64,000 nucleotides of DNA from Mycoplasmatales bacterium (GTDB lineage Bacteria > Bacillota_I > Bacilli_A > CBDATW01): positions 629,947 through 693,946 of the forward strand of contig OZ245334.1 of the NCBI GenBank assembly GCA_965226165.1, given 5' to 3'. Shown here piece by piece: positions 6,377-46,472 of this stretch. The translations under genes and the position numbers were made by a program. The number at the start of each line of letters is the position of its first letter. The first letter of the stretch is position 1. The notes below the pieces were generated by a model. It had not been told where the DNA came from, made no database searches, and was given only the letters and a program-made list of their open reading frames with translations.

Positions 6377-8759
<2,383 letters not shown>

Positions 8760-28712: not shown

Positions 28713-28748
28713 TTAAAGATATAAAATATTGTATGATATAATACTAAT

Positions 28749-28820
28749 GTCACAATAGTAACCTAAGAACCTGGTCAGATTAGAAATAAAGCAGCCATAA
28801 TTAGAAGTGCTATGTGTGAC
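28749..28820 (+). ncRNA. ffs: signal recognition particle RNA (small 4.5S/scRNA type)
   Basis: The domain IV motif CCTGGTCAG...AGCAGCCATAA is present. The ends pair (GTCACAATAG / CTATGTGTGAC) and a T-run follows. Its position upstream of tadA/dnaX resembles Bacillus scr. Confidence 0.7.
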
Positions 28821-28886
28821 TTTTTTATATATAATAATTTAATTAACAATAAATTCTATATATAAAAAATATAAAATGGTTTTAAG

Positions 28887-33499: not shown

Positions 33500-34192
33500 A
33501 TGACAAAATTAATTCATGCTTATATTATTGAAAACCAAACAATAGCTAAATTAAAAGTTTTAACAAAAAACTTTGTTAAAACACTAATTTGTGATGATTT
33601 AAGTGATAAATGCTTAAAATGTTTAGCAATTGAAAATGAGCAAAATAGTAATGTTTTATATTTTGATGGTTTTAGTGAAAAAATTAAAAACCAAGATATT
33701 AAACTTGCTAAGGAATTTACTAGTTATAAAAATGATAGTCAAGAAATTAAAATAGTGGTTTTACATGGGTTTGAATATGCCACCAAAAAAGCAGCAAATA
33801 GCTTTTTAAAATATTTAGAAGACCCTTATGAACAAACCATTTTTATTATCACTACTGCTAATAAAAATTTGGTGCTACCCACTATTGTTTCTCGTTGTGT
33901 TGATGTTACTAATAAAAAAGAAGATATTAAAGTAGAAACTAAATACCAAGAAGAAATTAATCTTATTAAAGCAAAACAATATTGAGACATTAATTGAGCC
34001 AGTTTTAATAAAAATAATATTTTAGATTTTTTAATAACTTTATCTAATAATATTGATGTTAAAACTAATCCTTTATTTGTTAAAGGGATATTACAAATTA
34101 TTGATCAAGTTAAATCAAATGTTACTTATGATTTAGTATTAGCACAAATTTTAAAATTATGTGAAGAGATTAGTGATGGAAAAAGTAATTAA
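33500..34192 (+). CDS. holB: DNA polymerase III delta' subunit
   Basis: Starts MTKLIHAYIIEN.. and contains ANSFLKYLEDP and TIVSRC motifs. It extends through two TGA codons. Its position after tmk matches M. genitalium-type order. Confidence 0.75.
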
Positions 34193-34874
34193 TCATAACA
34201 ACTTCCCTAATTTATATCTTCTAGCGACTCCAATTGGAAATTTAAAAGATGTTTCAATTCGGTTAATTGAAACATTAGAATTAATTACTATTTTGCTTTG
34301 TGAAGATACAAGAAAAACAGGCCTATTATTACAAAAGTTAAATATTAAAAATAAACCTAAACTAATTAGATATGATGTTACTAATGAAAATAAAATAACT
34401 AGTAAAATAATTAACCTCTTTAAAGAACATCAAAACATAGGTTTATGTAGTAATGCAGGCACACCATTAATTTGTGATCCTGGCTTTCCTTTGGTAAGAG
34501 ACATTCAAAAATTAGATATTAATGTTGTTTCTATTCCTGGTCCAAATGCTTATTTAAATGCTTTAGTTGTTAGTGGTTTTCCAACTAATCATGTGTTTTT
34601 AGGTTTTATTAAAAATAAAGAATCACAGATTATTAAACAATTAAATGAGGCAAAGCAATATAAATTATCAATTGTTTTTTATGTCTCATGTTATAAGTTA
34701 TTAAAAACTTTAAAAATAGCTAATGATATTTTTAAAGATAAAGAAATTTTTATTGCTAAAGAATTAACCAAATTATATGAAACCCATTATCAAGGTGAAA
34801 TTAATGATGTTATAAAAAAATTACCACAAACTCTAAAAGGAGAATATGTGGTAATCATTAATAATGCAGGTTAG
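34176..34874 (+). CDS. rsmI: 16S rRNA 2'-O-ribose C1402 methyltransferase
   Basis: Contains LYLLATPIGNLKDVSIR..LCEDTR (tetrapyrrole-methylase fold). An alternative GTG start lies at 34161. Confidence 0.85.
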   Translation: MEKVINHNNFPNLYLLATPIGNLKDVSIRLIETLELITILLCEDTRKTGLLLQKLNIKNKPKLIRYDVTNENKITSKIINLFKEHQNIGLCSNAGTPLICDPGFPLVRDIQKLDINVVSIPGPNAYLNALVVSGFPTNHVFLGFIKNKESQIIKQLNEAKQYKLSIVFYVSCYKLLKTLKIANDIFKDKEIFIAKELTKLYETHYQGEINDVIKKLPQTLKGEYVVIINNAG

Positions 34875-34930
34875 TTATTGTTGTCTTTAAAAAGTGTATA
34901 ATAAAATTATGAAAGTCATAGGTAAAAATT

Positions 34931-35131
34931 ATGAAGAGAATTGCAAAAACAAAAACATATGAATTGAAAAGAATAAGTGATATAGACATTATTATTGAAA
35001 AACAAAAACCAAATAACTTTAAAGTCAAAAGTTTAGGAATAAATAAAAGGCAAAGTGCCTTTCGAGAAGTGGGGAAAGACAGATTTATATTGGATTATAT
35101 TCACATACTTGTGTGTATTTGATATGAATAA
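34931..35131 (+). CDS. hypothetical protein (66 aa)
   Basis: This is the track ORF plus WYE after one TGA. No motif recognised. It sits at the left edge of the defence island. Confidence 0.25.
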
Positions 35132-35149
35132 AAAATAGCAATAAAGACT

Positions 35150-35644
35150 TTAAAATAAATCAATAAAGGGATTTTCTATTTTCCTGTGTTTTAACAAATA
35201 TCGAAAGACCCGATTAGGGTTTATAGGTTTATTATAATACGTCTCAGGTAATTTAATTTTTTTTAATTTTTCATTTTTAAATAAATATGAATATGATTGA
35301 TTTTTGAAATTATAAATCTTTTCAATACAATCCAAATAACCATTTTTATTAAATGAAACATACCCATATTCAAATATTAGATCACACGATCCGCACAAAA
35401 TTAAAAAGTTATCCCAATCTCTCATTTCATATTTATTGCAAACACTATATTGCTTTATATGTGAAGCTCTTAAAAATTTTTTGTTAGAAAGACCACATAT
35501 CGCGCACTTCTTATGCAATTGTTTTAAATCATTAGCAGTTTTTGTGTGACCCTTTCTATAACTTGATAAATATTCTACTTTTTCTCCCAACTCTATTCTT
35601 CTTTTAGCTTCATTGCTTTCTTTATGAAACTTATATTTAATCAT
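35150..35644 (-). CDS. HNH (HNH_2-type) nuclease, third gene of the GHKL/Z1 operon
   Basis: Contains KCAICGLSNKKFLRASHIKQYS....WDNFLILCGSCDLIFEYGYVSF. Its start lies 21 nt after the Z1 stop. Confidence 0.7.
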   Translation of the reverse strand: MIKYKFHKESNEAKRRIELGEKVEYLSSYRKGHTKTANDLKQLHKKCAICGLSNKKFLRASHIKQYSVCNKYEMRDWDNFLILCGSCDLIFEYGYVSFNKNGYLDCIEKIYNFKNQSYSYLFKNEKLKKIKLPETYYNKPINPNRVFRYLLKHRKIENPFIDLF

Positions 35645-35665
35645 CTTTTCTTTGTCTCTAAAAGA

Positions 35666-37249
35666 TCATATTGTTTTATTTTGTATGATTTTTTGTTCCA
35701 CAAATTTTGCCTCATAATTTTTATTTTTATTTTTCAAACTATAATTATTTATTACATTTTCTATATTTGAAAATTCTTCTGTGTTTTTTGAAGAAACTTT
35801 ATCTATTAAATCATCTTTAATAATCCCAAACTTTTTATTTTTCAATAATTCTTCTGTTACTTTAATAATTTCATTTTCTTGCTTTTCTTTTTTTTTCAAA
35901 ATTTTGTCATTAAACAAATTTTTATATTTAGATTTATTCATATTGTAAAAATTAATAATTTCATCAATGTTGTTTCTTTCACAAACATTCTTTAATTCTT
36001 TATTTATTATTTTTATTTCTTTGTATTTCTTAATTAATTCTAATTCTAAATAAACATTTGGTTCTTCTTTTCTATAACCTAAAAATCTAGCATTTTGCAT
36101 TAATATATCATAATTAGTGTTTTTATTTTTTGAAATAATAATATCAGTTAATCCCTCAAATGTGTTTCCTCTAGAAAAGCAAAAACCTCCAATTAATATT
36201 TTCTTTTCGTTCTTTATAGTTTTAAAACTATTATGCTTGTCGTGCTTGTTTGAATTTATAATTAAAATATTGCTTTTTCTTAAATGCCATCATTTTGTTA
36301 ATTCTAATAACTGGTTTTTATTAATATTTAATGTTTCTTTATTTTTTTTTCTATTTGGAGTGTTATCATCTATGTATTTAACAAAAAAAAGCACTATCAA
36401 TTTTTTTATTTGCTTATGAAATTTTTGCTCAGTTTTTACATTTATCAAAAATTCATTGTCTTTTTTATTATCAAGTAGCCACTTAATCAAAACACTTATT
36501 ATTTTATTGCACTCTTTAATAGGCAATTGAATACCCAAATCTTCTATTTCTTTTTTAGAAAAAAATTCTTTTATTTGTATTTGGTTATAGTTGTCAAAAT
36601 TATGAAAACCCAAATATTTTTGGCCATATTCCAAAACACAAACCCCTTGTATATTTATATATTTTTGTGCATATTTAGAAAAAATATTTCAAAAAGGAGT
36701 TGCCGAAACACCAATATATTTTGAACCTTCATAATCAAACAAAGTGTTTAAGCCATAATCTATTAAATTATCTTTGCTTCAATAATCACATTCATCATCA
36801 AACACAACAATTTTTTTGTTTAATTCTTTAGCTTTTTTAACAATTCTTTTAAGGTCGTTTGTTTGTTTTTTTAAAAATATAATTTGTTTGTATTTCCTTC
36901 TATTAATAAAAATATCAATTTCCTCATTAATATAGCAATAGATATTATAATCATTATTATTGTAAGCTTTTTTAAATCTTGAAAATGTTTGATCATTCAG
37001 GGAATTTCTATCGCCTGTTAAAACAATTATTCATGAATAATTTTGTTCAAAAAATCAACCAGATAAATAAATCATATTGTTTGTTTTACCAGACTGGACA
37101 TCACCATATAAAACAATTCTGTTATTTTTATTAATTTCTTTTATAATTTTATTCAAATTTTTATCAAGAATTTTTTCAAAGTTTTCTTTTTGAATAGGAT
37201 CTTCAATTTTCTTTGATAGATTAAGCTTTAAGCTATTTAATATTTTCAT
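35666..37249 (-). CDS. Z1-domain P-loop/helicase-like protein (527 aa)
   Basis: Three track ORFs share one frame (1584 nt). Motifs: GDVQSGKTNN (Walker A), VFDDECDYW, GVSATPF, GGFCFSRGNTFEGLT and ARFLGYR (Z1 signature). Confidence 0.8.
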
Positions 37250-37262
37250 TTATTCAATTTTT

Positions 37263-39170
37263 TCATTCTTCTTCATTCTTGACTCTTTTACCTTCAAACA
37301 AAAGAACAATTATAAATGCAAGTACTGAGGCATTATAAAGTTTTTCTTTTCTATTTTCTGTTTGATCTTCATTGATTTCATCAAATGTAATATTTTTATG
37401 TGCATTAAATCTATATAATTTAACCTGTCTATCTCCAACTATATCTTTAAAATTTTTATTCAATTCATCTCTTTGTTCCTGACTAAAAGTTCCAGGGTTT
37501 TCTTCATAAAAAGTTTGTACAAACTTGTTTGGTTCATCAAAATTTTGTATTGTTAGGGTAGGCAAGGTTTCATCAATAAATTTTACACTTAATAAAATTG
37601 ACTTTTCTTCATCTTCATCAGCCATAGAAAAAAGTCATTCCTTAGGGGTTATATTAATTCTTGGAACCTCATTCATTTCACTTAAAGATCATTTTATTTT
37701 GCTATCATTAAAAAAAACTTTTGACCCATCATCATTTGAAAAATTGTCATTTCATTTTGTTAAATAAGCATTTGCAAAAAGAACAACATAATAAAGTTTC
37801 ATTTTTTTAAAAACTTCTTTATAAAAACAATCTTTTATTCTTTTAATTAATTCTTTGTCAAAATTTATTTTATTTTTTTCTGTCCTTATTTTATCATTTA
37901 TTGGTAAAATAATTTCTAAATCAAAATGTTCTAATTTTACTACCCCAGAACCACCCCTTTTTCCAACAAGGTTTTTAATTCACGATTTTTGAGGTATAGA
38001 TTTCTCCATAACATGAGGGCCCCTGTCATGTTGATATAATCTTATTCCTAAATTTTTCTTTCCCAAACTATTACTATTTTTTATTTCAATAGTTTTTCTT
38101 TTTGATGAAGAGTGTGGTATTCCAAATATTATTTTGAATGAATCTTCTTCATTCAAAAAACCATCTAAATCTGATATTCAATTAAAAGCTCATTTTAATT
38201 CTTCTCCTTTTTCAGAAGGAAGACTTAATAATTTTTTTCACATTAAGTTTAAATCATATTTTCTTCCATCAATTTGCCTTATATTATTGAATGTTGTATT
38301 ATCTTTTCACTCCAAAAATGATTCAAAAGTTTCAACAAATGATGTTTTTATCCAACCCACATTGTTCAAATATTCAAATTTTCTTTTAAGAATAGTTTCT
38401 CAATCTTCTTCATCACCAATTTTACAAAAAATATCAAGATTTTGTATAACAAAAAAATCTCTAGGAATCTTTTTTTCAATTATTCATTCATAATCAATAG
38501 TTTCAGTATTTTCAAATATATTTATTTTTATTTTTATTGCTTTGTTTGTTAAAAAATTTTTATAATACCTAATAGCCACAAAGTAACAAAATAATTGAAA
38601 ATTATCAATTTTAAAAATTTTATCTTTATCTTTTCTTTCATCATAAAAATCAAAAATTCTAATAAGCGTGCCTGTTGTTTCAAAATCACTTGTTATTCCT
38701 TTTATTTTTGAATGTTCAATTTCTCTAAACTTAATAATTCCTGAATAATCTTTCCATGTAGTGTCTGAATCATCTTTTGAATAATGAGCATTAACACACA
38801 ATGCCTTTTTAAAAATTTTGTTATTTTTATTAAAAGAAGAACTAAAAATTTGGCCTTGATATCCAAAAAATTGAATAGCATCTTTCATCCCCACATTATA
38901 TTCAGATTTAGTGTCTTTTAAGTTTTCTGAATATCTTGTTATTGCGGAATCTCATATTTCTTCCTTAATTCCTTCACCATTATCTTTTACTCATAAATGA
39001 TCTTCGTTTCAAAAAATTTCAATAATTAAATCTTTATTTTGTTGTTGATATTCTAAAGAATTGTCAATTAATTCACAAATAAAATATTTTCAAGGAATTT
39101 TACTTTTTTCTCCCTCGCTTCTCCATCTTGCTTTTTGATCAATTATAGCTTTATGCAGATCTCCTATCAT
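37263..39170 (-). CDS. GHKL-family (HATPase_c_3-like) ATPase (635 aa)
   Basis: The N-terminus MIGDLHKAIIDQKARW...FICELIDNSLEY...LWVKDNGEGI carries the Bergerat N and G1 boxes. I translated 37626..38483 codon by codon and found no TAA or TAG. Confidence 0.8.
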
Positions 39171-39491
39171 ACAAACCCCTTAAATATATTAATTATATCA
39201 ATACTATCACACCAGAATCTCCAACACAATATTTTTGAAAACATTTTCAATAATTTAAATAAAGTGTTAAAATAAAAATGTAGTTATGAGATAGAATTTA
39301 GTTATTAAATGTATATTAATAGTCATAGACTACATCAATTTAAAGTTTTAAATCTTTTTTTCAAATATTTTTTGTTATTAAGTTTTTATTTTTGTTTTTT
39401 CTTTTGAGAAGCTTTGAAGTTTTCATTTTTAGACTCCTTTTTTAAAAGTAAATGTTTTTGTTAATTTTAAATTAAAACTTAAATTGAACTC

Positions 39492-39525
39492 AAAAATAAC
39501 TTATTTTAATTAATAAGTTATTTTT
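39492..39525. repeat. perfect 14-bp-stem inverted repeat
   Basis: aaaaataacttatt / ttaatt / aataagttattttt, in the divergent spacer upstream of the GHKL operon. Confidence 0.6.
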
Positions 39526-39579
39526 TAATATATATAACTAAATTAAAGGGATTTTATATTAATGTATAATTAAGTTATT

Positions 39580-39795
39580 ATGAAGCGTCGACCTAGCGAT
39601 TATATTATTATTATATTTGTCATCATGTTTTTTGCAGTTGCTGCTTTTTACATCTTAGTTCCTTCTGGCCAAGATGGCATTTCTTTAATTGTGCAAAATA
39701 CAGTTAGAAGATATTTTTTTAATAATTTATGAGCTTGAATATTTGCTTTCTTTATTCTAGGAGGAATTATTTTAGTATCAATTCTTTTTTATTAA
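39580..39795 (+). CDS. hypothetical small membrane protein (71 aa)
   Basis: Translation: MKRRPSDYIIIIFVIMFFAVAAFYILVP...LWAWIFAFFILGGIILVSILFY. A TATAAT lies upstream. Confidence 0.3.
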
Positions 39796-39825
39796 AAAAG
39801 AAAAAGATAATGTTATAATTGCTTT

Positions 39826-39972
39826 ATGATTGGTCTTGGTGAAGTTTGAATTAGCTTTCTTGTATTTTGTTTTTTGGCCATTGTTTCCTGACCCTTTACT
39901 GAAAATACAATCATTACTATTTTAATTTCTTTTTTGTTAGCATCTTGATTCTTATTTTCTTCTGGAAAATAA
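39826..39972 (+). CDS. hypothetical small membrane protein (48 aa)
   Basis: Translation: MIGLGEVWISFLVFCFLAIVSWPFTENTIITILISFLLASWFLFSSGK. Weak call. Confidence 0.2.
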
Positions 39973-39979
39973 AAACAAT

Positions 39980-42138
39980 TTATTTTAAACCAACAATTTT
40001 TCTATATTGCATAATCTTGTGAAGAGGCATTTCTATCATAGGTGCTCATCTTAGATTGTTTATATGATTTACAAAATTAAGCCTATTATAAATATTTTTT
40101 CACTCTTCCTCTATTTCCAATTTTTCTTTTTCTATAATATTCATTAAGCCTTTAAATTTACCATTATTTCATTCATTTATTTTGTTTTCACTTAAACTCA
40201 ATATTACTTTTTTTTCAATTTGAAATCGTATTTGCATTGTCAACATATATTTATTTAAAACATAGTCAAAAAAACTTTCAATTTCATTTTTTGATTTATG
40301 TTTATAATTCAGAATGAAATCACTCACCGTTTTTTCCTTAATTGATTTATTTTTAAATAAAAAGTTCAAAGGACTATTGTTTTCTTGGAGCAAGTTAATT
40401 AGTTGCATAGGAGCGATTTCTTTAATTTCTTTTACAAGAACAAAGAACGACTTACTATTCGACCTTCAATGTCTATAGTTTTGGTCAATAAAATCTTTTA
40501 ATTTTTCTAAATCTTTTTTTTCTTCTTTGCTTTTTGCATTTAAAAAATAATTACTTGTAATTTCCCTCAATATTGTTGCAAACATCAATACAGTTTCTTT
40601 ACTACATTTGTCAAGGTTTTTGTCTTTCTTAAAATTAGTTGTCAACCATTTAGACATTTTTTTTAAAACATTAATATTAATTTCTTTTACAATAATGTCT
40701 GCTTGACTATATGAGTCCATAAAAAAGAATTTAGTATTATCATTATTTTTTGCAATTGCAAAATTACTTAACAAGTGATAATTATGAGTTAGTATTAAAA
40801 TGTTTTTGTTTTTATCAAAATTATTTATTATTTCAATAAAGATATTAATATTATCCAAATCCAAAGAGGAAACAGGATCATCAATTACTATGAAATCTTT
40901 TTCTTTTGCTTCAATTAAAGCAATTATTAAATACAAAATTTTTCTTTGCCCATTTGACCCGTACTCATTAAGTTCATCTTTTGAAATTGTTTTTGAATTA
41001 TTCTTATTTTCAAAAACAATATTAGTCTCTTCATAATAATTTTTAATTTCTTTAATCTTAATTGTTCACATTAAAGCATTTATTTTTAAACTTTCCTCAT
41101 TAATTTCTTTAGCAATTTCATTATAATTTTTAACAAAATTTTTATTTTCATTTATAATTTTTTTATGTTCAATTTGAAGCTGATCTTGATATTTTTTAAA
41201 TTCTCCTATTATAAGGCTATCCCACATTTCAATTAAAAAATTTTCTGCAATCTTTAATTCTGCTATTCCCCTCGTGGATAACTTTTCTATTTCCTTGTGA
41301 TTGCCTTTTAAATATCGCAACGCTAAATAAGCATCCCTATTAAGTTTACTAATTCCGTTTTCATTAAATTTTTCTTTAAGGTTCTCTTCAGCATTCTTTA
41401 TGTCGATTCAATGATTTTCATATTTATATTGAAAGTTTAGAGAACCAGACTCATTTATGTTTTTGATTAGTGGAAAATCTCTGTCAAGATTTTTGTTAAA
41501 ATATTTTCCAACCTTATCATCTAACTTGTTAAATTTTATCCTTTTATCAACCTTAGTAGCTTTTTTAATTGCATCTATTTTGTTTTTATATAATTTAATC
41601 TTATCAAAAAGATCTTTATCAATGTGCTTGGGGCTTTTTAGTAAAATTTTATTTTCAATATCCTTTATTTCCTCTATGTTTTTATTAGGATTATTAACTA
41701 TTTTTTTAATTATCTTAGATATTTCGCTTTGATTGTCAATTTCTTTATTATCAAAAAAAATTGAATACTTAATTTTTAACTCTTTAAAAACTTTTTCAAT
41801 AATTTTAAAATATCCTACATGTAAATCACTATTTATAGAAAATATTATTTTTTTGTTAACTTGATTTTTGATTAAATCACTATTTTCGCTATTTTTAATT
41901 TCATCAAGAAAATTTTCATCTATTATAAATATTTGATTACTTTTTATATCAATTTGAATAAAATCTTTATTAACCGTTCCTTCTAATGAAGTTTTAAAAA
42001 TTTTTTCTTTCAAACCTTTGAAACCTTTTGTTATGCTTGTTTTTCCAACCCCATTTGGTGCAAATATTATATTTTTTCACTTAAGTCAAAATTTATTTCA
42101 TCTTTTAGACCATAAAGATTTTTTATTTTCAATTTCAT
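39980..42138 (-). pseudogene. AAA_13/ABC-type (PrrC/RloC-like architecture) ATPase, N-terminal 23 codons out of frame at an A6 tract
   Basis: MKLKIKNLYGLKDEINFDLSEKI-stop is in one frame. NIIFAPNGVGKTS (Walker A) is in the next. Track ORFs 41408, 41066, 40466 and 40169 share that second frame through TGA. Signature and Walker B read GSNGQRKILYLIIAL...FIVIDDPVSSLD. The 3' end near 39980 was derived by hand. Confidence 0.6.
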
Positions 42139-42270
42139 TATAACTTCTTTTTTTTATTTCCAATCTTATGAATGCCCTTCTTAAATTATAAAAAAAATGT
42201 TTAAAAACTTCATTTAAAAATTGAAAATTTCTTAAAAATTTGTTTTAATTAATTAAGGAACGCTAGACTC

Positions 42271-42849
42271 ATGGAACGAAAATTAAAAGATATGATTTCT
42301 CAAGAAATGGTTTTATGAAGAGATCAATCAAGGAGACACAACTTTTCACCAAAAGGGTGAATAATATCAGAAATAGTAAAAAATTATTATAAAGATTTTT
42401 TCAAAAATAAAGAAGAGTTTAATATTAAAGAATTTTGTAAAAAGTTAGAATTAGAAGTAGAAAAAATAGATTTAAATTTTAACAGTCTAGACAAAAATAT
42501 TTGAGGAATGCTGGATCGAAAAAACAAAAAAATTTATATTTCTGAACATTTGAAAAATGAACAAACCATAAGATTTACAATAGCACATGAATTAGCTCAT
42601 TTTTTAATAGACCAAAATGAAACCAATGATATATATTATAGAGATAGAATTAATATTGGTAAAGAAGTAATATATAATGATTTTGCTGCAAGTTTTTTAG
42701 TTGATATCAAACAAATTCAAGATTATATAGACAATAAAAAATTAACTTTTCGAGAATTATCAAAAAATTATAAAGTTCATTATGAAACAATCGGCATTTT
42801 AATTGACCAAGAGTTAAGAAAAAGAAAAAAAATAAATCAAATTAAGTAA
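42271..42849 (+). CDS. ImmA/IrrE-family (COG2856-like) zinc metallopeptidase, no HTH domain (192 aa)
   Basis: Contains ..KKIYISEHLKNEQTIRFTIAHELAHFLIDQ (HEXXH). The ATG at 42271 is in frame with track ORF 42508 through three TGA codons. Confidence 0.75.
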
Positions 42850-42851
42850 TT

Positions 42852-43421
42852 ATGGCATTATCTAAGAAAGAATTAAACAAAATTAAAGAATTAGAAGATG
42901 AAATAAAAAGACTTGATTGAAGATTAAGAAGACAAGAGAAAATTTTATATGATAAAAATACTGAAATTAATGAATATCTTTCTAAATATAACTCATTTCA
43001 ACAAAAAATTGAATCAGAATTTACTATTCTTAAAAACTCTAAAGAAATTGAATCGAAATTTCTATATGAAAACTCAAGATCAAATTTGCACACAATTACT
43101 ATTTTTTCATTTATTTTAATTCTGTCATTAACTATTTTGAATTCTATAATAATAAACAGGCTTGATAAATTTCAAATTAAAATTAAAGATGGAAAAGAAA
43201 TTATTGAAAAAACATATGATGGAAATGCAATAAATACAATAATTTCATTTTCATATGCATATGCTCTTCTTGGTTTTTTCACAATCTTCATTGTTTCAAA
43301 GCTATTTGATAGCTTGTGAAAATTTAAAGACAAAAAAATTTTAACAACAATAACCATAATATTTGTGAATTTATCAATAATTTGAATAGCAATTTTGTTA
43401 TATTTACTTTTTATTAAATAA
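42852..43421 (+). CDS. coiled-coil plus three-TM membrane protein (189 aa)
   Basis: It starts 3 nt after the peptidase stop. MALSKKELNKIKELEDEIKRLDWRLRRQEKILYD... is followed by three hydrophobic helices (ITIFSFILILSLTILNSIII, ISFSYAYALLGFFTIFIV, IIFVNLSIIWIAILLYLLFI). Confidence 0.55.
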
Positions 43422-43523
43422 AAATTAAATTTCTATAATAAATAATACAAAAAACATAATATAATAAAAAATATTTATATTTAATATATATTTTTAGTAT
43501 AATATTTACAAATGAGGTGTAAA

Positions 43524-44819
43524 ATGAATAAAAATAACAAAGCAAACAAAATAATTTCTTTGAAAGCAAAAAATGTTTTTTCGTTTTATGATGAAACGAA
43601 AATATCTTTTTTGGGAAAGACAAGAAAAAAAGATAAAAAAAGTTTTTATCAATTTTTAAACAAAAAAAATCAAGTGAACATTTCTAACATAAATGGTATT
43701 TTTGGAATTAATTCATCAGGTAAAACAAACCTAATAGTTAAAACAATTCAAAAACTTAAAAACATAATAAAATCAAAAAGTGTTGAAAAAGAGTTGTTAG
43801 ATGTACCCTTTTTTAATTCGAGTAATAAAGAATCAACCATAGCTTTAGAATTTCTAACATCAGCAAAATTTTATTATTTTGAAATCAAATTTAAAAATAA
43901 CAAAATCACACATGAAAAACTTTCTTTTAAAGAAAAAAAAGTTAATAAATACCAAAATATTTACAAAGTAGAAAATAATAAGTTTTATTTAAAAAACAAA
44001 TTTATTAACAAAATAGAATTAAAAGATGAAACAATAATTGGCAATACAAGTTTATTTAATATGTTTTTGTATAAAGAAAAGATTGAAGCATCAACAAAAA
44101 GAAAACATATTGAATTAGTAAAAGACTTTGTTATAAATAAAATTCATTTATTAACGCCAGAAACAATTAGTTTTGAAGAAACATTATCAAAACTAGCAAA
44201 TAAATCTTATGTATTTCAAAAATTTAATAACATCGCTAAAGAAATAAATTTAGGTTTTGAAAAAATTGAATGCGAATTAAATGAGGTTATAACTAAGGAT
44301 TTTAAAATGGAGCAAAAAGAAAATGGTTTTTCTTTCTTTTCTGCAAAAGACAAAGTCGTTAAAAAAATTTCTCCTAAATTTTATAGATCAATAGATACTG
44401 ATAAATACGAATTAATTCCTAAACTTGCAAACACCTTATCTAGTGGAACTATTCAATTTATTGAAACTATAGTATTTTTACTAGATGCTGTTGAAAGCAA
44501 TCATATTTTAATTTGAGATGAATTTGGCAGTTTTCTTGATGATGAATTAATAGAAGCTATATTTGAAATCATTGCTAATAATGACTCAGTACAATTAATT
44601 TTTAATTCTAATAAAAAATCAATTATTTCAAAGCTAGATTGAAACCAAATTTTTATTGTTAAGTTAAATAGGCATTGAGAATCTAGTTTAATAGAAAGAA
44701 ACTATTCAAGAATTCAACAAGTGGAAATAGAAAAGAAATATCGAAACAATTACTTTGGCAATCTTAATAATTTTAATGTGATAAGTATTCTCAAACATTT
44801 TGATAAAGCATTTGGTTAG
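43524..44819 (+). CDS. soluble ABC-type ATPase (AAA_15/AAA_21-like, 431 aa)
   Basis: GAGGTG RBS and an upstream TATAAT. Motifs: GINSSGKTN (Walker A), LSSGTIQF (signature) and HILIWDEFGSFLD (Walker B, after a TGA). Confidence 0.8.
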
Positions 44820-44824
44820 CTTTT

Positions 44825-45406
44825 ATGAAAAAAGTAAAAAGTAAAATTGATATTTCATTTTATGTTGAGGGACAAGTTGAACAATGATTAATAAATTTTA
44901 TTAATGAAGAGTTTTCATTCCATAAAATTTGCAATATAAAAAATCCTGAAGTTACTAAATATAAAAAAAATATTGAATATATAATTCAAAAAGTTTATAA
45001 ATTAGAAAAATTTAATGAAAACAAACACTTAAAACCAATAGTTATTTTAATTTATGATAACGAAGTAAAGGTTTCAAAAATATACAAAAATATACACCAC
45101 ATTCATATTAACAAACCATCAATTGATTATCCAATTGCATTATCATTAGGAATAAAAGCTAACAAAAATGATCAAGTTAGAAAAATAAAATCAAAAATAA
45201 AGATAAAATATAAAACTACAAAACAAAACTATTTAAGAGAAAAAAGATTAAAAGATGATATTAACTATAATATTTTGTTTAATCATTTAGGAAAATTAGG
45301 TTTGTTTTTCAAACATTTAATTAATATTTTAAATAAAAATAAAAATGCTAACCAAAGCAAAGTGAATGAAACAATAAAAAAAATAGCACTTAAAGTGTTT
45401 AAATAA
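44825..45406 (+). CDS. small DUF4276/RloB/Toprim-like partner protein (193 aa)
   Basis: It starts 5 nt after the ATPase stop and is absent from the track (TGA at codon 21, no later ATG). MKKVKSKIDISFYVEGQVEQWLINFI resembles the DUF4276 N-terminal VEGxTE motif. A later IVILIYDNE acidic patch is present. Confidence 0.5.
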
Positions 45407-45464
45407 ATCTATTATTTTTTATTTAAAAATGAAATAATATTTATAGGTGATAAAGGAGATATAT

Positions 45465-46472
45465 ATGAGTGTAAAAATTAATATATATGATAGCAAAAAA
45501 CATGATGTAAAATTTTTTACTAAATATAATAAAGATAATTATCAATTAAATTTTTTAGAATATAAAATATCTAAAAATATGAACCTAAATCAATTCAAAA
45601 AAGATTTAAAAGATGTAGACATTATTGTTGTTTTTGTTAATGATGATGTTTCTAAAGAAACAATTCAAGTTTTAAAAGAAACAAATGTTAAATTGATTGC
45701 TACAAGATCAGCTGGATTTAATCATATTGATTTAGATGCAGCAAAAGCAAATGATATTAAAGTGGTAAGAGTGCCAGAATATTCACCCCACTCAATTGCA
45801 GAACATGCTATTGCCTTGCTTTTAACAATTAATCGTAAAACCCATCGGGCTTATTTAAAATCAAAAATGAATGATTTTACTTTAGATGGTTTAATTGGTT
45901 GGGATTTATATGGCCAAACTATTGGAGTATTTGGCTATGGGAAAATTGGTAAAATTTTTGCTAACATTATGAAAAGCTTTGGTTGTAAAGTCATAGTTAA
46001 CTCTTTACCAAGTGATAAGGAGGCAATTATTAAAGACGGGCATCAATTTGTTGATTTAAAAACCTTGTTTGCAAAATCAGACATCTTATCTCTTCATTCA
46101 CCATTAACTCCTGACACTAAGGAAATTATTAATAAAAAAACCATATCCTATATGAAAAAAGGCATAGTTTTAATTAATACTAGTCGAGGAGGTTTAATTA
46201 ATTCTAATGATTTAATTGATGGTTTAAGAAAAAACATTATTTCTTTTGTTGGTCTTGATGTTTATAGTAATGAAGCCAATTATTTTTTTGAAGATAAATC
46301 AAAAGATAATATTAATGATCCAATTTTAATGCAATTATTACAATCTAATAAAGTTTTAATTACACCTCATTCAGCCTTTTTTACTAATAATGCATTAACC
46401 CAAATTGCCAAAGTTACGCTTTTTAATATCAAGCAGTTTTTAAACAAACAAAAATTAGATAATCAACTATAA
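45465..46472 (+). CDS. D-isomer-specific 2-hydroxyacid (D-lactate) dehydrogenase
   Basis: AAGGAG RBS. Contains GVFGYGKIGKIF (NAD fold) and NTSRGGLI motifs. Confidence 0.85.
   Translation: MSVKINIYDSKKHDVKFFTKYNKDNYQLNFLEYKISKNMNLNQFKKDLKDVDIIVVFVNDDVSKETIQVLKETNVKLIATRSAGFNHIDLDAAKANDIKVVRVPEYSPHSIAEHAIALLLTINRKTHRAYLKSKMNDFTLDGLIGWDLYGQTIGVFGYGKIGKIFANIMKSFGCKVIVNSLPSDKEAIIKDGHQFVDLKTLFAKSDILSLHSPLTPDTKEIINKKTISYMKKGIVLINTSRGGLINSNDLIDGLRKNIISFVGLDVYSNEANYFFEDKSKDNINDPILMQLLQSNKVLITPHSAFFTNNALTQIAKVTLFNIKQFLNKQKLDNQL

Follow-up and report, generated by a model that had tools for sequence, protein, structure and literature searches.

What kind of protein follows the ABC-type ATPase gene at this locus of a Mycoplasmatales chromosome, and do the two genes together form an immunity module of a known type? 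The pair lies in a 64-kb stretch of contig OZ245334.1 (the whole of which is called the window below), which has a G+C content of 25% and in which long open reading frames (ORFs) appear only when TGA is read as Trp (genetic code 4). The original prediction held that an ABC-type ATPase gene (gene A) is followed after 5 nucleotides (nt) by an ORF of 193 amino acids (aa; gene B) encoding a divergent small partner of the DUF4276/Toprim-like kind, in a tight pair that follows the ATPase-plus-Toprim logic of AbiL, PARIS and OLD. Both genes and the gap between them were found as described, as were all the quoted peptides, including ILIWDEFGSFLD (residues 328-339 of A) and, in the 23-kDa product of B, ISFYVEGQVEQWL and IVILIYDNE. 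Our results support the AbiL/PARIS/OLD logic of the pair and argue against the DUF4276 label. On the evidence of sequence comparisons, A and B probably constitute a two-gene anti-phage or toxin–antitoxin-like module of the AbiL/RloAB kind, with B as a diverged Toprim-like nuclease of the RloB/AbiLii type.

43524..44819, plus strand: gene A, predicted ABC-type ATPase of the AbiLi/RloA type, 431 aa, read in code 4 with three in-frame TGA codons as Trp (ATG at 43524, TAG at 44817-44819)
44825..45406, plus strand: gene B, putative effector of 193 aa, lysine-rich, a candidate highly diverged RloB/AbiLii Toprim-like protein (ATG at 44825, 5 nt beyond the gene A stop; TAA at 45404-45406)
44885-44887, plus strand: TGA codon 21 of gene B (Trp21), which hides the gene from code-11 ORF finders

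Gene B is missed under code 11 for the reason originally given: codon 21 is TGA, and the next in-frame start is only a TTG at 45275, which opens a 43-aa ORF (45275..45406). The code-11 ORF of gene A is likewise truncated, at the TGA at 44514-44516.

The assignment of the first gene to the ABC-type ATPases was borne out by a match to Pfam AAA_21 (PF13304, E=3e-8). Among PADLOC models, AbiLi (PDLC02335) ranked at the top for A (E=3.1e-33), ahead of AriA (1.6e-9) by 24 orders of magnitude, and HEC-01A came third (5e-4); there was no significant match to the OLD or GajA models of this collection. For comparison, control pairs were fetched from plasmids (ten loci with an 'RloB family protein' and six with a 'DUF4276 family protein') by means of approximate consensus sequences, which served as bait only, and the proteins of these loci were then run through PADLOC. 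The RloB-partnered ATPases (four controls) matched AbiLi at 1e-74 to 1e-101 and then AriA, which is the same ranking as that of A. In contrast, the DUF4276-partnered ATPases matched HEC-01A at about 1e-150, and AbiLi far lower, at about 1e-18 to 1e-21. In BLASTP, A and its homolog aligned over their full length with the RloB-partnered ATPases (E=2.6e-6 and 3.8e-8), whereas with the DUF4276-partnered ATPases only the Walker A and signature segments aligned. A multiple alignment showed A to be collinear with the RloB-partnered ATPases from the N-terminal strand through the C-terminal KKYRNNYFG (KxYLxGxYG, or KxYxxGxYG, in those proteins), with 'LDWNQIF' of A corresponding to their RRDQIW. The nucleotide-binding motifs of A that were placed in this way are the following.

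43704..43727, plus strand: Walker A (P-loop) GINSSGKT, residues 61-68 (GINSSGKTN spans 61-69), aligned with GANASGKS of RloB-partnered ATPases
44436..44450, plus strand: ABC signature-like LSSGT, residues 305-309, aligned with E-S-x-G-T of RloB-partnered ATPases
44505..44525, plus strand: Walker B ILIWDEF, residues 328-334, in which the Trp is encoded by the TGA at 44514-44516
44604..44612, plus strand: H-loop position, N-S-N, residues 361-363, aligned with [TS]-H-[DE] of RloB-partnered ATPases

The full catalytic set of an ABC ATPase is therefore incomplete in A: Walker A, LSSGT and the WDE of Walker B are present and the H-loop histidine is absent. The three members of the A clade agree on N361, S362 and N363, and all of them retain Walker A, the signature and Walker B. 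A tblastn search of 72,556 plasmids with A gave no match, which indicates that A is distant from the plasmid-borne examples. By its model ranking and its alignments, gene A is an ABC ATPase of the AbiLi family.

Gene B, by contrast with A, is recognised by no family model, in keeping with the divergence ascribed to it at the outset. Two relatives of A were found in a database of 5.8 billion proteins, P0003 (88% identity) and P0004 (51% identity); they sit at the same chromosomal position in the ENA metagenome contigs L001 and L002, and a B-like gene follows each. L002 encodes a B homolog of 203 aa that is 49-51% identical to B (BLASTP E=2e-54), and its gene shares 8 nt with the end of the preceding ATPase gene. 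The identity of A to the window copy is 51% in L002 and 87% in L001, and that of B is 49% in L002 and 92% in L001 (N-terminal part), compared with 93-99.6% (L002) and 92-98% (L001) for the flanking housekeeping proteins, which indicates that the two genes of the pair diverge together, as one unit. For the window copies compared with those of L001, the ratio of nonsynonymous to synonymous substitution rates (dN/dS) was 0.107 for A, 0.118 for the N-terminal part of B and 0.36 for its C-terminal part. As a homolog of B follows the A homolog in a related contig, and as dN/dS is low, B is not a chance ORF; it is a real, conserved coding gene that evolves under purifying selection and is closely tied to A.

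Judged by sequence, B is close to being an orphan. A word-indexed search of the 5.8 billion proteins with B returned only B itself, and an exhaustive phmmer search of 1.84 billion representative proteins returned two true relatives, both syntenic and from near-identical strains, with one spurious repeat protein as the third return. Neither the B alignment nor a degenerate DNA pattern for its third motif found anything in metagenome and viral contigs, tblastn with the B homolog as query returned no match in phages, and the B profile, when run against PDB sequences, picked up only a chance match to REV1 (E=0.14).

The comparison of B with its homolog pointed to a small number of best-conserved blocks, namely ISFYVEG-VE (with E15, G16 and E19), ILIYD-E (with D78 and E80), PSID[YF]P[IL]ALSLGIK (with D101) and a C-terminal helix. 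Within the B family, the acidic residues E15/E19, D78/E80 and D101 do not vary. The first three blocks correspond to the following motifs.

44852..44881, plus strand: motif 1, ISFYVEGQVE, residues 10-19, a predicted beta-strand followed by E15, G16 and E19, invariant relative to the 51%-identical homolog
45038..45064, plus strand: motif 2, IVILIYDNE, residues 72-80, a predicted beta-strand followed by D78-x-E80 (IIILIYDQE in the homolog)
45101..45151, plus strand: motif 3, IHINKPSIDYPIALSLG, residues 93-109 (IHISNPSIDFPLALSLG in the homolog), the best-scoring spot for RloB 'vAwSNxxFElWlLLHF'

RloB proteins carry EG-TE-YF, vWvVfDkD and SNxCFElWlLLHF in the same order as the B blocks and with similar spacing. 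Motif 1 was aligned with RloB LIvcEG-TE in every alignment tried, and also with DUF4276 VEGQTE; motif 2 was aligned with RloB vWvVfDkD when a diverse set of RloB references was used; and the RloB block scored best at motif 3 in each of the three B-family sequences, motif 3 also being in register in the global hhalign comparison and in one of the alignments (A5). When B and its homolog were aligned with 17 diverse RloB proteins by unsupervised MAFFT, E15, G16, E19, D78, E80, D101 and L106 fell in the invariant RloB columns (E, G, E, D, D, E and L) in three of the four modes, and in alignment A5 Y136 and K140 were also near-invariant.

Whether such an agreement exceeds chance was judged against decoys, which in all tests of B were 195-aa segments cut from other proteins of the same genomes. 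With a position-specific scoring matrix (PSSM) for the three collinear motifs, the L002 homolog scored 21.7 bits (p=0.005 versus shuffles), a score reached by none of 138 decoys; in each of the three B-family sequences motifs 2 and 3 fell where they were expected, whereas motif 1 did so only in the L002 homolog. In a global hhalign comparison with the diverse RloB profile, the same homolog scored 14.6 (P=0.008, z=4.7; 0/70 decoys reach it), with motifs 1 and 3 in register. When the sequences were added with mafft --add to the alignment of 17 diverse RloB proteins, B matched 35 and its homolog 34 of the 49 conserved columns, compared with 23.9±3.1 (maximum 31, n=135) for decoys and a maximum of 32 for shuffles (n=150). 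With nine plasmid RloB proteins as the reference, the matches were 32/41 for B (z=3.9) and 30/41 for the homolog (z=3.2), and none of the 135 decoys reached either value. In support of that, the only one of 5,027 PADLOC models that any B-family sequence matched at E≤10 was AbiLii, matched by the L002 homolog (E=0.013), with residues 4-152 aligned to profile positions 26-110, the region that is matched by true RloB proteins, which score about 1e-26.

Several results weigh against this relationship. Window B reached only 12.9 bits in the three-motif test (p=0.18) and 4.6 in the global hhalign comparison with the diverse RloB profile (z=0.5), where it was not above decoys. With 32 Firmicute RloB proteins as the mafft --add reference its z was 1.7 and 5/135 decoys reached it, although the L002 homolog stood out here as well (z=3.45, 0/135 decoys). 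With Firmicute-only references, MAFFT placed only motif 1 in register, and motif 2 was not aligned to vWvVfDkD. A purpose-built RloB hidden Markov model (HMM) scored all B-family sequences at about 0 bits in hmmsearch, and the reciprocal B-family HMM did not rank RloB proteins above decoys. Local hhalign gave no in-register match of B to RloB and recovered only the N-terminal strand; local hhalign is, however, low-powered with such shallow profiles, as even the comparison of DUF4276 with RloB, used as a control, gave only the N-terminal motif. At normal thresholds B had no match in Pfam, PADLOC, NCBIfam or PHROGs, and the families proposed for it in the original prediction, PF14103, PF13707 (RloB) and PF14491 (DUF4435), all left window B unmatched. 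For PF13707 and PADLOC AbiLii this was so even at E≤10, and PF14491 and AriB were equally without a match in Pfam and PADLOC at E≤10.

Structure prediction of the 193-aa protein had been suggested as a way to recognise a Toprim fold. The AlphaFold2 models of B and of its homolog, built from two-sequence alignments, were of low confidence (predicted local distance difference test scores of 39.5 and 46), and Foldseek with the better model against the PDB gave no significant match and none to Toprim (best E 0.03, template-modelling scores ≤0.27), which also counts against the RloB relationship. The order of the predicted secondary-structure elements in these low-confidence models is beta1, alpha1, beta2, alpha2, beta3, beta, beta4, alpha and four long helices, an order that would fit a Toprim-like core with a helical tail. 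As separate observations, residues 15-124 of the L002 homolog (P0006), which span the putative Toprim-like core, gave a marginal PHROG match to phrog_4792 'anti-repressor' (E=0.009), which could be a chance match, or phrog_4792 could be a mis-named Toprim-like family; and a HEPN Rx4H motif (RILEKH) considered in the same homolog was rejected, as it is absent from window B.

The same results bear on a possible, although rather unlikely, alternative: that an AbiLi-type sensor, A, is combined here with an undescribed small effector or adaptor that is not of the Toprim/RloB type and has taken the position of AbiLii. The lack of any curated-model match to window B, the non-significant local profile comparisons, the silence of the structure models and Foldseek on Toprim, and the dependence of the alignment beyond motif 1 on the RloB reference set would all fit such a replacement, and effector swapping on the AAA_15/21 ATPase scaffold is documented in the literature (HNH, HEPN, NERD, PIN and other partners). 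However, it would not be expected under this alternative that the RloB-collinear acidic motifs are the best-conserved blocks of B, that the decoy-calibrated tests favour RloB, that the sole PADLOC match of the homolog is AbiLii, or that the predicted beta-alpha-beta-alpha-beta-beta-alpha order with a helical tail is the one expected for a Toprim core. The evidence that B is an extremely diverged Toprim-like protein of the RloB/AbiLii type is thus suggestive and internally consistent, and we consider this relationship the likelier one, judging from the motifs and their calibration.

The DUF4276 label, which the original prediction had attached to B, did not withstand the same tests. The resemblance behind it is easily seen, as ISFYVEGQVE is like the DUF4276 VEGQTEE, with the same E-G-x-x-E spacing, and DUF4276 genes are known directly downstream of AAA ATPases, as in the plasmid loci fetched. 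However, the same N-terminal motif aligns DUF4276 to RloB, which indicates that the EGxxE strand is generic to the superfamily; hhalign aligned only this 'hhhhEGxxE' strand of B with DUF4276 (P=0.015 over 23 columns), as readily as it aligned DUF4276 with RloB (P=0.006). B had no match to PF14103 or HEC-01B in Pfam and PADLOC, including at E≤10, whereas a true DUF4276 protein matches HEC-01B at 3e-91. In the global hhalign comparison with the DUF4276 profile both window B and the L002 homolog were below the decoy mean, the conserved-column matches of B were not above decoys, and the block corresponding to DUF4276 HEFEALLF was absent from window B in the column-match alignment. Nor is A of the DUF4276-partner type, as its HEC-01A score is only 5e-4, compared with about 1e-150 in true partners. 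That the pair is an ATPase plus DUF4276 system is therefore largely refuted, and we regard it as very improbable. The accompanying remark that no experimentally characterised system of this kind was known needs to be qualified: the ATPase plus DUF4276 combination is already catalogued, as the PADLOC candidate HEC-01, and when it was tested in E. coli no defence was detected (bioRxiv 10.1101/2024.01.29.577857).

To which known system, then, does the pair come closest? AbiL consists of an ABC/Rad50-like ATPase and a TOPRIM/OLD-like AbiLii of the RloB family (PMC13064643, PMC10440598), and more generally AAA_15/21 ATPases pair with TOPRIM-Old, DUF4435, RloB or DUF4276 partners (bioRxiv 10.1101/2024.01.02.573894). 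As in AbiL of the Lactococcus lactis plasmid pND861, the ATPase gene comes first and a partner of about 200 aa second, AbiLi is the top model for A, and B has acidic motifs collinear with those of the RloB family, to which AbiLii, predicted to be TOPRIM/OLD-like, belongs. Unlike AbiL, B is recognised by neither the AbiLii nor the PF13707 model (its homolog only below threshold, at E=0.013), A lacks the H-loop histidine, and the pair is chromosomal, in a code-4 Mollicute-like genome. For AbiL itself, an abortive-infection phenotype was demonstrated in Lactococcus. The ATPase and the operon layout are thus those of AbiL and the partner falls below the AbiLii/RloB thresholds, so that the pair is not a strict AbiL member and would not be called by automated tools. 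The possibility raised at the outset that the pair belongs to an already characterised system accordingly holds for the ATPase, in the AbiLi family, and fails for the partner.

The RloA/RloB pairs, which are widespread on plasmids and in restriction-modification loci (as with Campylobacter RloAB), resemble the present pair in gene order, in the overlap or short gap between the genes, in protein sizes (193-203 aa in the B family, about 185-250 aa in RloB), in the full-length collinearity of the ATPases and in their neighbourhoods of defence genes. In nine of the ten plasmid loci that were fetched, the RloB gene comes after an ATPase gene of about 410-540 aa, which it either overlaps or follows at ≤75 nt; the tenth RloB gene is at the edge of a stretch from a small Klebsiella plasmid. 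The differences are on the side of B, which is only 8-17% identical to RloB proteins in alignment A5, has a shorter beta3-beta4 segment (D78 to D101 is 23 residues, compared with about 31 in RloB), and in whose family the RloB SNxCFExWxLLH is degenerate, as [KNQ]PSID[YF]P[IL]ALSL.

The pair is related more loosely to other members of the wider group in which an ABC ATPase (AAA_15/21) is combined with a Toprim-like nuclease, that is OLD, Gabija, PARIS, AbiL and HEC-01. With PARIS (AriA and AriB) it shares an AAA_15/21 ABC ATPase sensor and a separate effector of the Toprim type, but AriA is only a secondary match for A, and AriB is a DUF4435 protein (PF14491) of about 35 kDa, whereas the 23-kDa B matches neither DUF4435 nor AriB, so that the pair is not a PARIS system. 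With HEC-01 it shares the two-gene layout of an ATPase and a small Toprim-like partner and the N-terminal EGxxE strand, but A and B do not match the HEC-01 models as true members do. OLD nucleases and GajA of Gabija share with the pair the ATPase superfamily and a catalytic chemistry presumed to be that of Toprim; there the ATPase and Toprim domains are fused, unlike the separate genes found here. From these comparisons, the pair is most likely a new, highly divergent variant of the AbiL/RloAB type.

The chromosomal setting of the pair was examined by comparison with the two metagenome contigs. The presence of dnaA, dnaN, gyrB and gyrA in the window gives it the appearance of a Mollicute chromosome of about 0.75 Mb. 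The pair is bounded by rsmI (34161-34874) and a D-2-hydroxyacid dehydrogenase gene (45465-46472), which is followed by hpt, rsmG, parA and parB. Between rsmI and the dehydrogenase gene (34161-46472 in the window, 1833-11656 in L002, and in L001), the contents are either swapped or about 50% identical, set between flanks that are 93-99.6% identical, which is the signature of a defence hotspot. The window has genes for a Z1-helicase-HNH protein, a GHKL ATPase and a 727-aa ABC ATPase, a cluster that is absent from L002, which has a DpnII-type restriction-modification system there; in L001 an additional N6/N4 methyltransferase gene and a 200-aa ORF are inserted between the dehydrogenase gene and hpt. 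This interval is a hypervariable defence hotspot. Its G+C content is slightly below that of the surroundings (19-23% versus 25-27%). No tRNA genes were found anywhere in the 64-kb window, the search for flanking direct or inverted repeats at the island gave only AT-rich chance matches, and no terminator-like sites were found there, so that there is no evidence for a discrete mobile element.

The copy of B in L001 (2869-3500) differs from the other two: one copy of the 10-nt direct repeat AAAAATATAC, which in the window occurs twice in tandem at about 45075-45094, is lost, causing a frameshift, and the EG motif carries a G16R substitution. A is intact in L001 although B is frameshifted. The loss of a toxin with its antitoxin kept is the tolerated direction of decay, and such a possible loss of B but not of A would fit B as the toxic component. 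However, the frameshift lies on a contig with 1.59x coverage (ENA ERZ26696836), which means that it and G16R may be sequencing errors rather than pseudogenisation.

These data also have to be weighed for an alternative that we find improbable, namely that the pair is not an active defence module but a decaying remnant, or that it has another cellular role in a variable region. The H-loop histidine of A is lost in three of three clade members, B is frameshifted in L001, the case for phage resistance is made from sequence, and HEC-01, a related ATPase plus TOPRIM candidate, gave no defence when tested. Against this alternative, purifying selection acts on both genes (omega 0.11 to 0.36), and two of the three strains have kept both of them intact although the copies have diverged by about 50%. 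The Walker A, signature and Walker B motifs of A are intact as well, and at this hypervariable hotspot the neighbours of the pair include restriction-modification genes and others of the defence type.

If the pair is of the AbiL/RloAB kind, as we prefer, the comparison with known systems allows a mechanism to be proposed. In PARIS, an AriA hexamer sequesters AriB, and a trigger leads to the release of AriB and to tRNA cleavage (bioRxiv 10.1101/2024.01.02.573894); the NetFlax study also validated toxin-antitoxin pairs of the ATPase/TOPRIM type. On the model of PARIS and of these NetFlax pairs, an oligomer of A would keep B inactive, and the sensing of a phage-derived trigger would release it. 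B would be a Toprim-like metal-dependent nuclease, with E15, E19, D78, E80 and D101 as candidate catalytic residues, and the released protein would cut tRNA, as in PARIS, or DNA, as in OLD and Gabija, so that the infected cell stops phage production. The loss of the H-loop histidine suggests that A would act mainly as an ATP-binding switch, with slow hydrolysis or none. The trigger, the nucleic-acid target and the sequestration are all borrowed from PARIS and NetFlax, which weakens the proposal; by analogy, we have moderate confidence that the pair works like AbiL.

A more radical view, which we regard as rather unlikely, is that B founds a new effector family unrelated to Toprim, or has been remodelled with a new chemistry, and is combined with an AbiLi-derived ATPase inactivated at the H-loop. 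If this were true, the pair would be a lineage-specific Mollicute toxin-antitoxin or abortive-infection system in which the ATPase is purely an ATP-gated sequestering switch, and the allelic divergence of about 50% would be the outcome of an arms race against phages of mycoplasmas or against mobile elements.

The remaining features of the locus are as follows.

43513..43518, plus strand: Shine-Dalgarno-like GAGGTG, read from the sequence, 5 nt ahead of the gene A ATG
43474..43503, plus strand: promoter-like TTTATA-18-TATAAT upstream of gene A, a weak candidate (10/12 consensus positions)
42271-42849, plus strand: ImmA/IrrE-type metallopeptidase of 192 aa with a HELAH motif, directly upstream of gene A
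42852-43421, plus strand: 189-aa protein, 3 nt after the ImmA-like gene, with an N-terminal coiled coil and predicted membrane helices
35150-37249, minus strand: 699-aa protein with SWI2/SNF2-like helicase, Z1 and HNH domains (PADLOC Helicase_II 1e-20, MzaC 2e-10)
37233-39170, minus strand: 645-aa GHKL ATPase (HATPase_c_3)
39980-42163, minus strand: 727-aa ABC ATPase (AAA_21/AAA_13)
28739-28833, plus strand: bacterial small signal recognition particle RNA (Rfam RF00169, 52 bits), the sole Rfam match in the window and an ordinary one

The placement of GAGGTG favours 43524 over 43512 as the start of gene A, and a database protein (P0002) has the same 431-aa form. The promoter-like site is only a candidate, as such sites are no commoner than in shuffled AT-rich sequence (25 found versus 34 expected). 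The ImmA-like peptidase matched Pfam Peptidase_M78 (1e-9) and PADLOC capP (2e-14) and RmrA (2e-6), and together with the membrane protein may form a Rosmer-like module of a peptidase and a membrane toxin; no helix-turn-helix partner of the two was seen. The identity of the peptidase to the window copy is 56% in L002 and 38% in L001, and that of the membrane protein is 44% and 31%, respectively; these two genes are a separate module that assorts independently of A/B. In L002, a 157-aa ORF (7418-7891) with a Pfam match to Peptidase_S78, a prophage head protease, lies between this module and the A homolog; it has no counterpart in the window, and may be a phage remnant hinting at the acquisition of the island. 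The three-gene cluster on the minus strand looks like a Mza-like or Z1-type restriction cluster, judging from its domains.

What the pair means for this family of systems follows from its divergence. The known picture of ABC-ATPase plus Toprim immunity is not changed by it; rather, it is extended to a new lineage and to a more extreme divergence. Should B be confirmed as a Toprim nuclease, it would stand at the outermost limit of the RloB family, with only five or so acidic residues and a few hydrophobic positions left; it would then help to delimit the smallest catalytic core, and more sensitive models could be built from it. The locus displays the dynamics of a defence hotspot, with A/B alleles that are about 50% identical set between flanks that are 93-99.6% identical. 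Standard tools would miss the pair twice, as code-11 ORF calling hides B and as the AbiLii/RloB models fail on it, and this double miss suggests that surveys may undercount defence systems in minimal genomes in which TGA encodes Trp.

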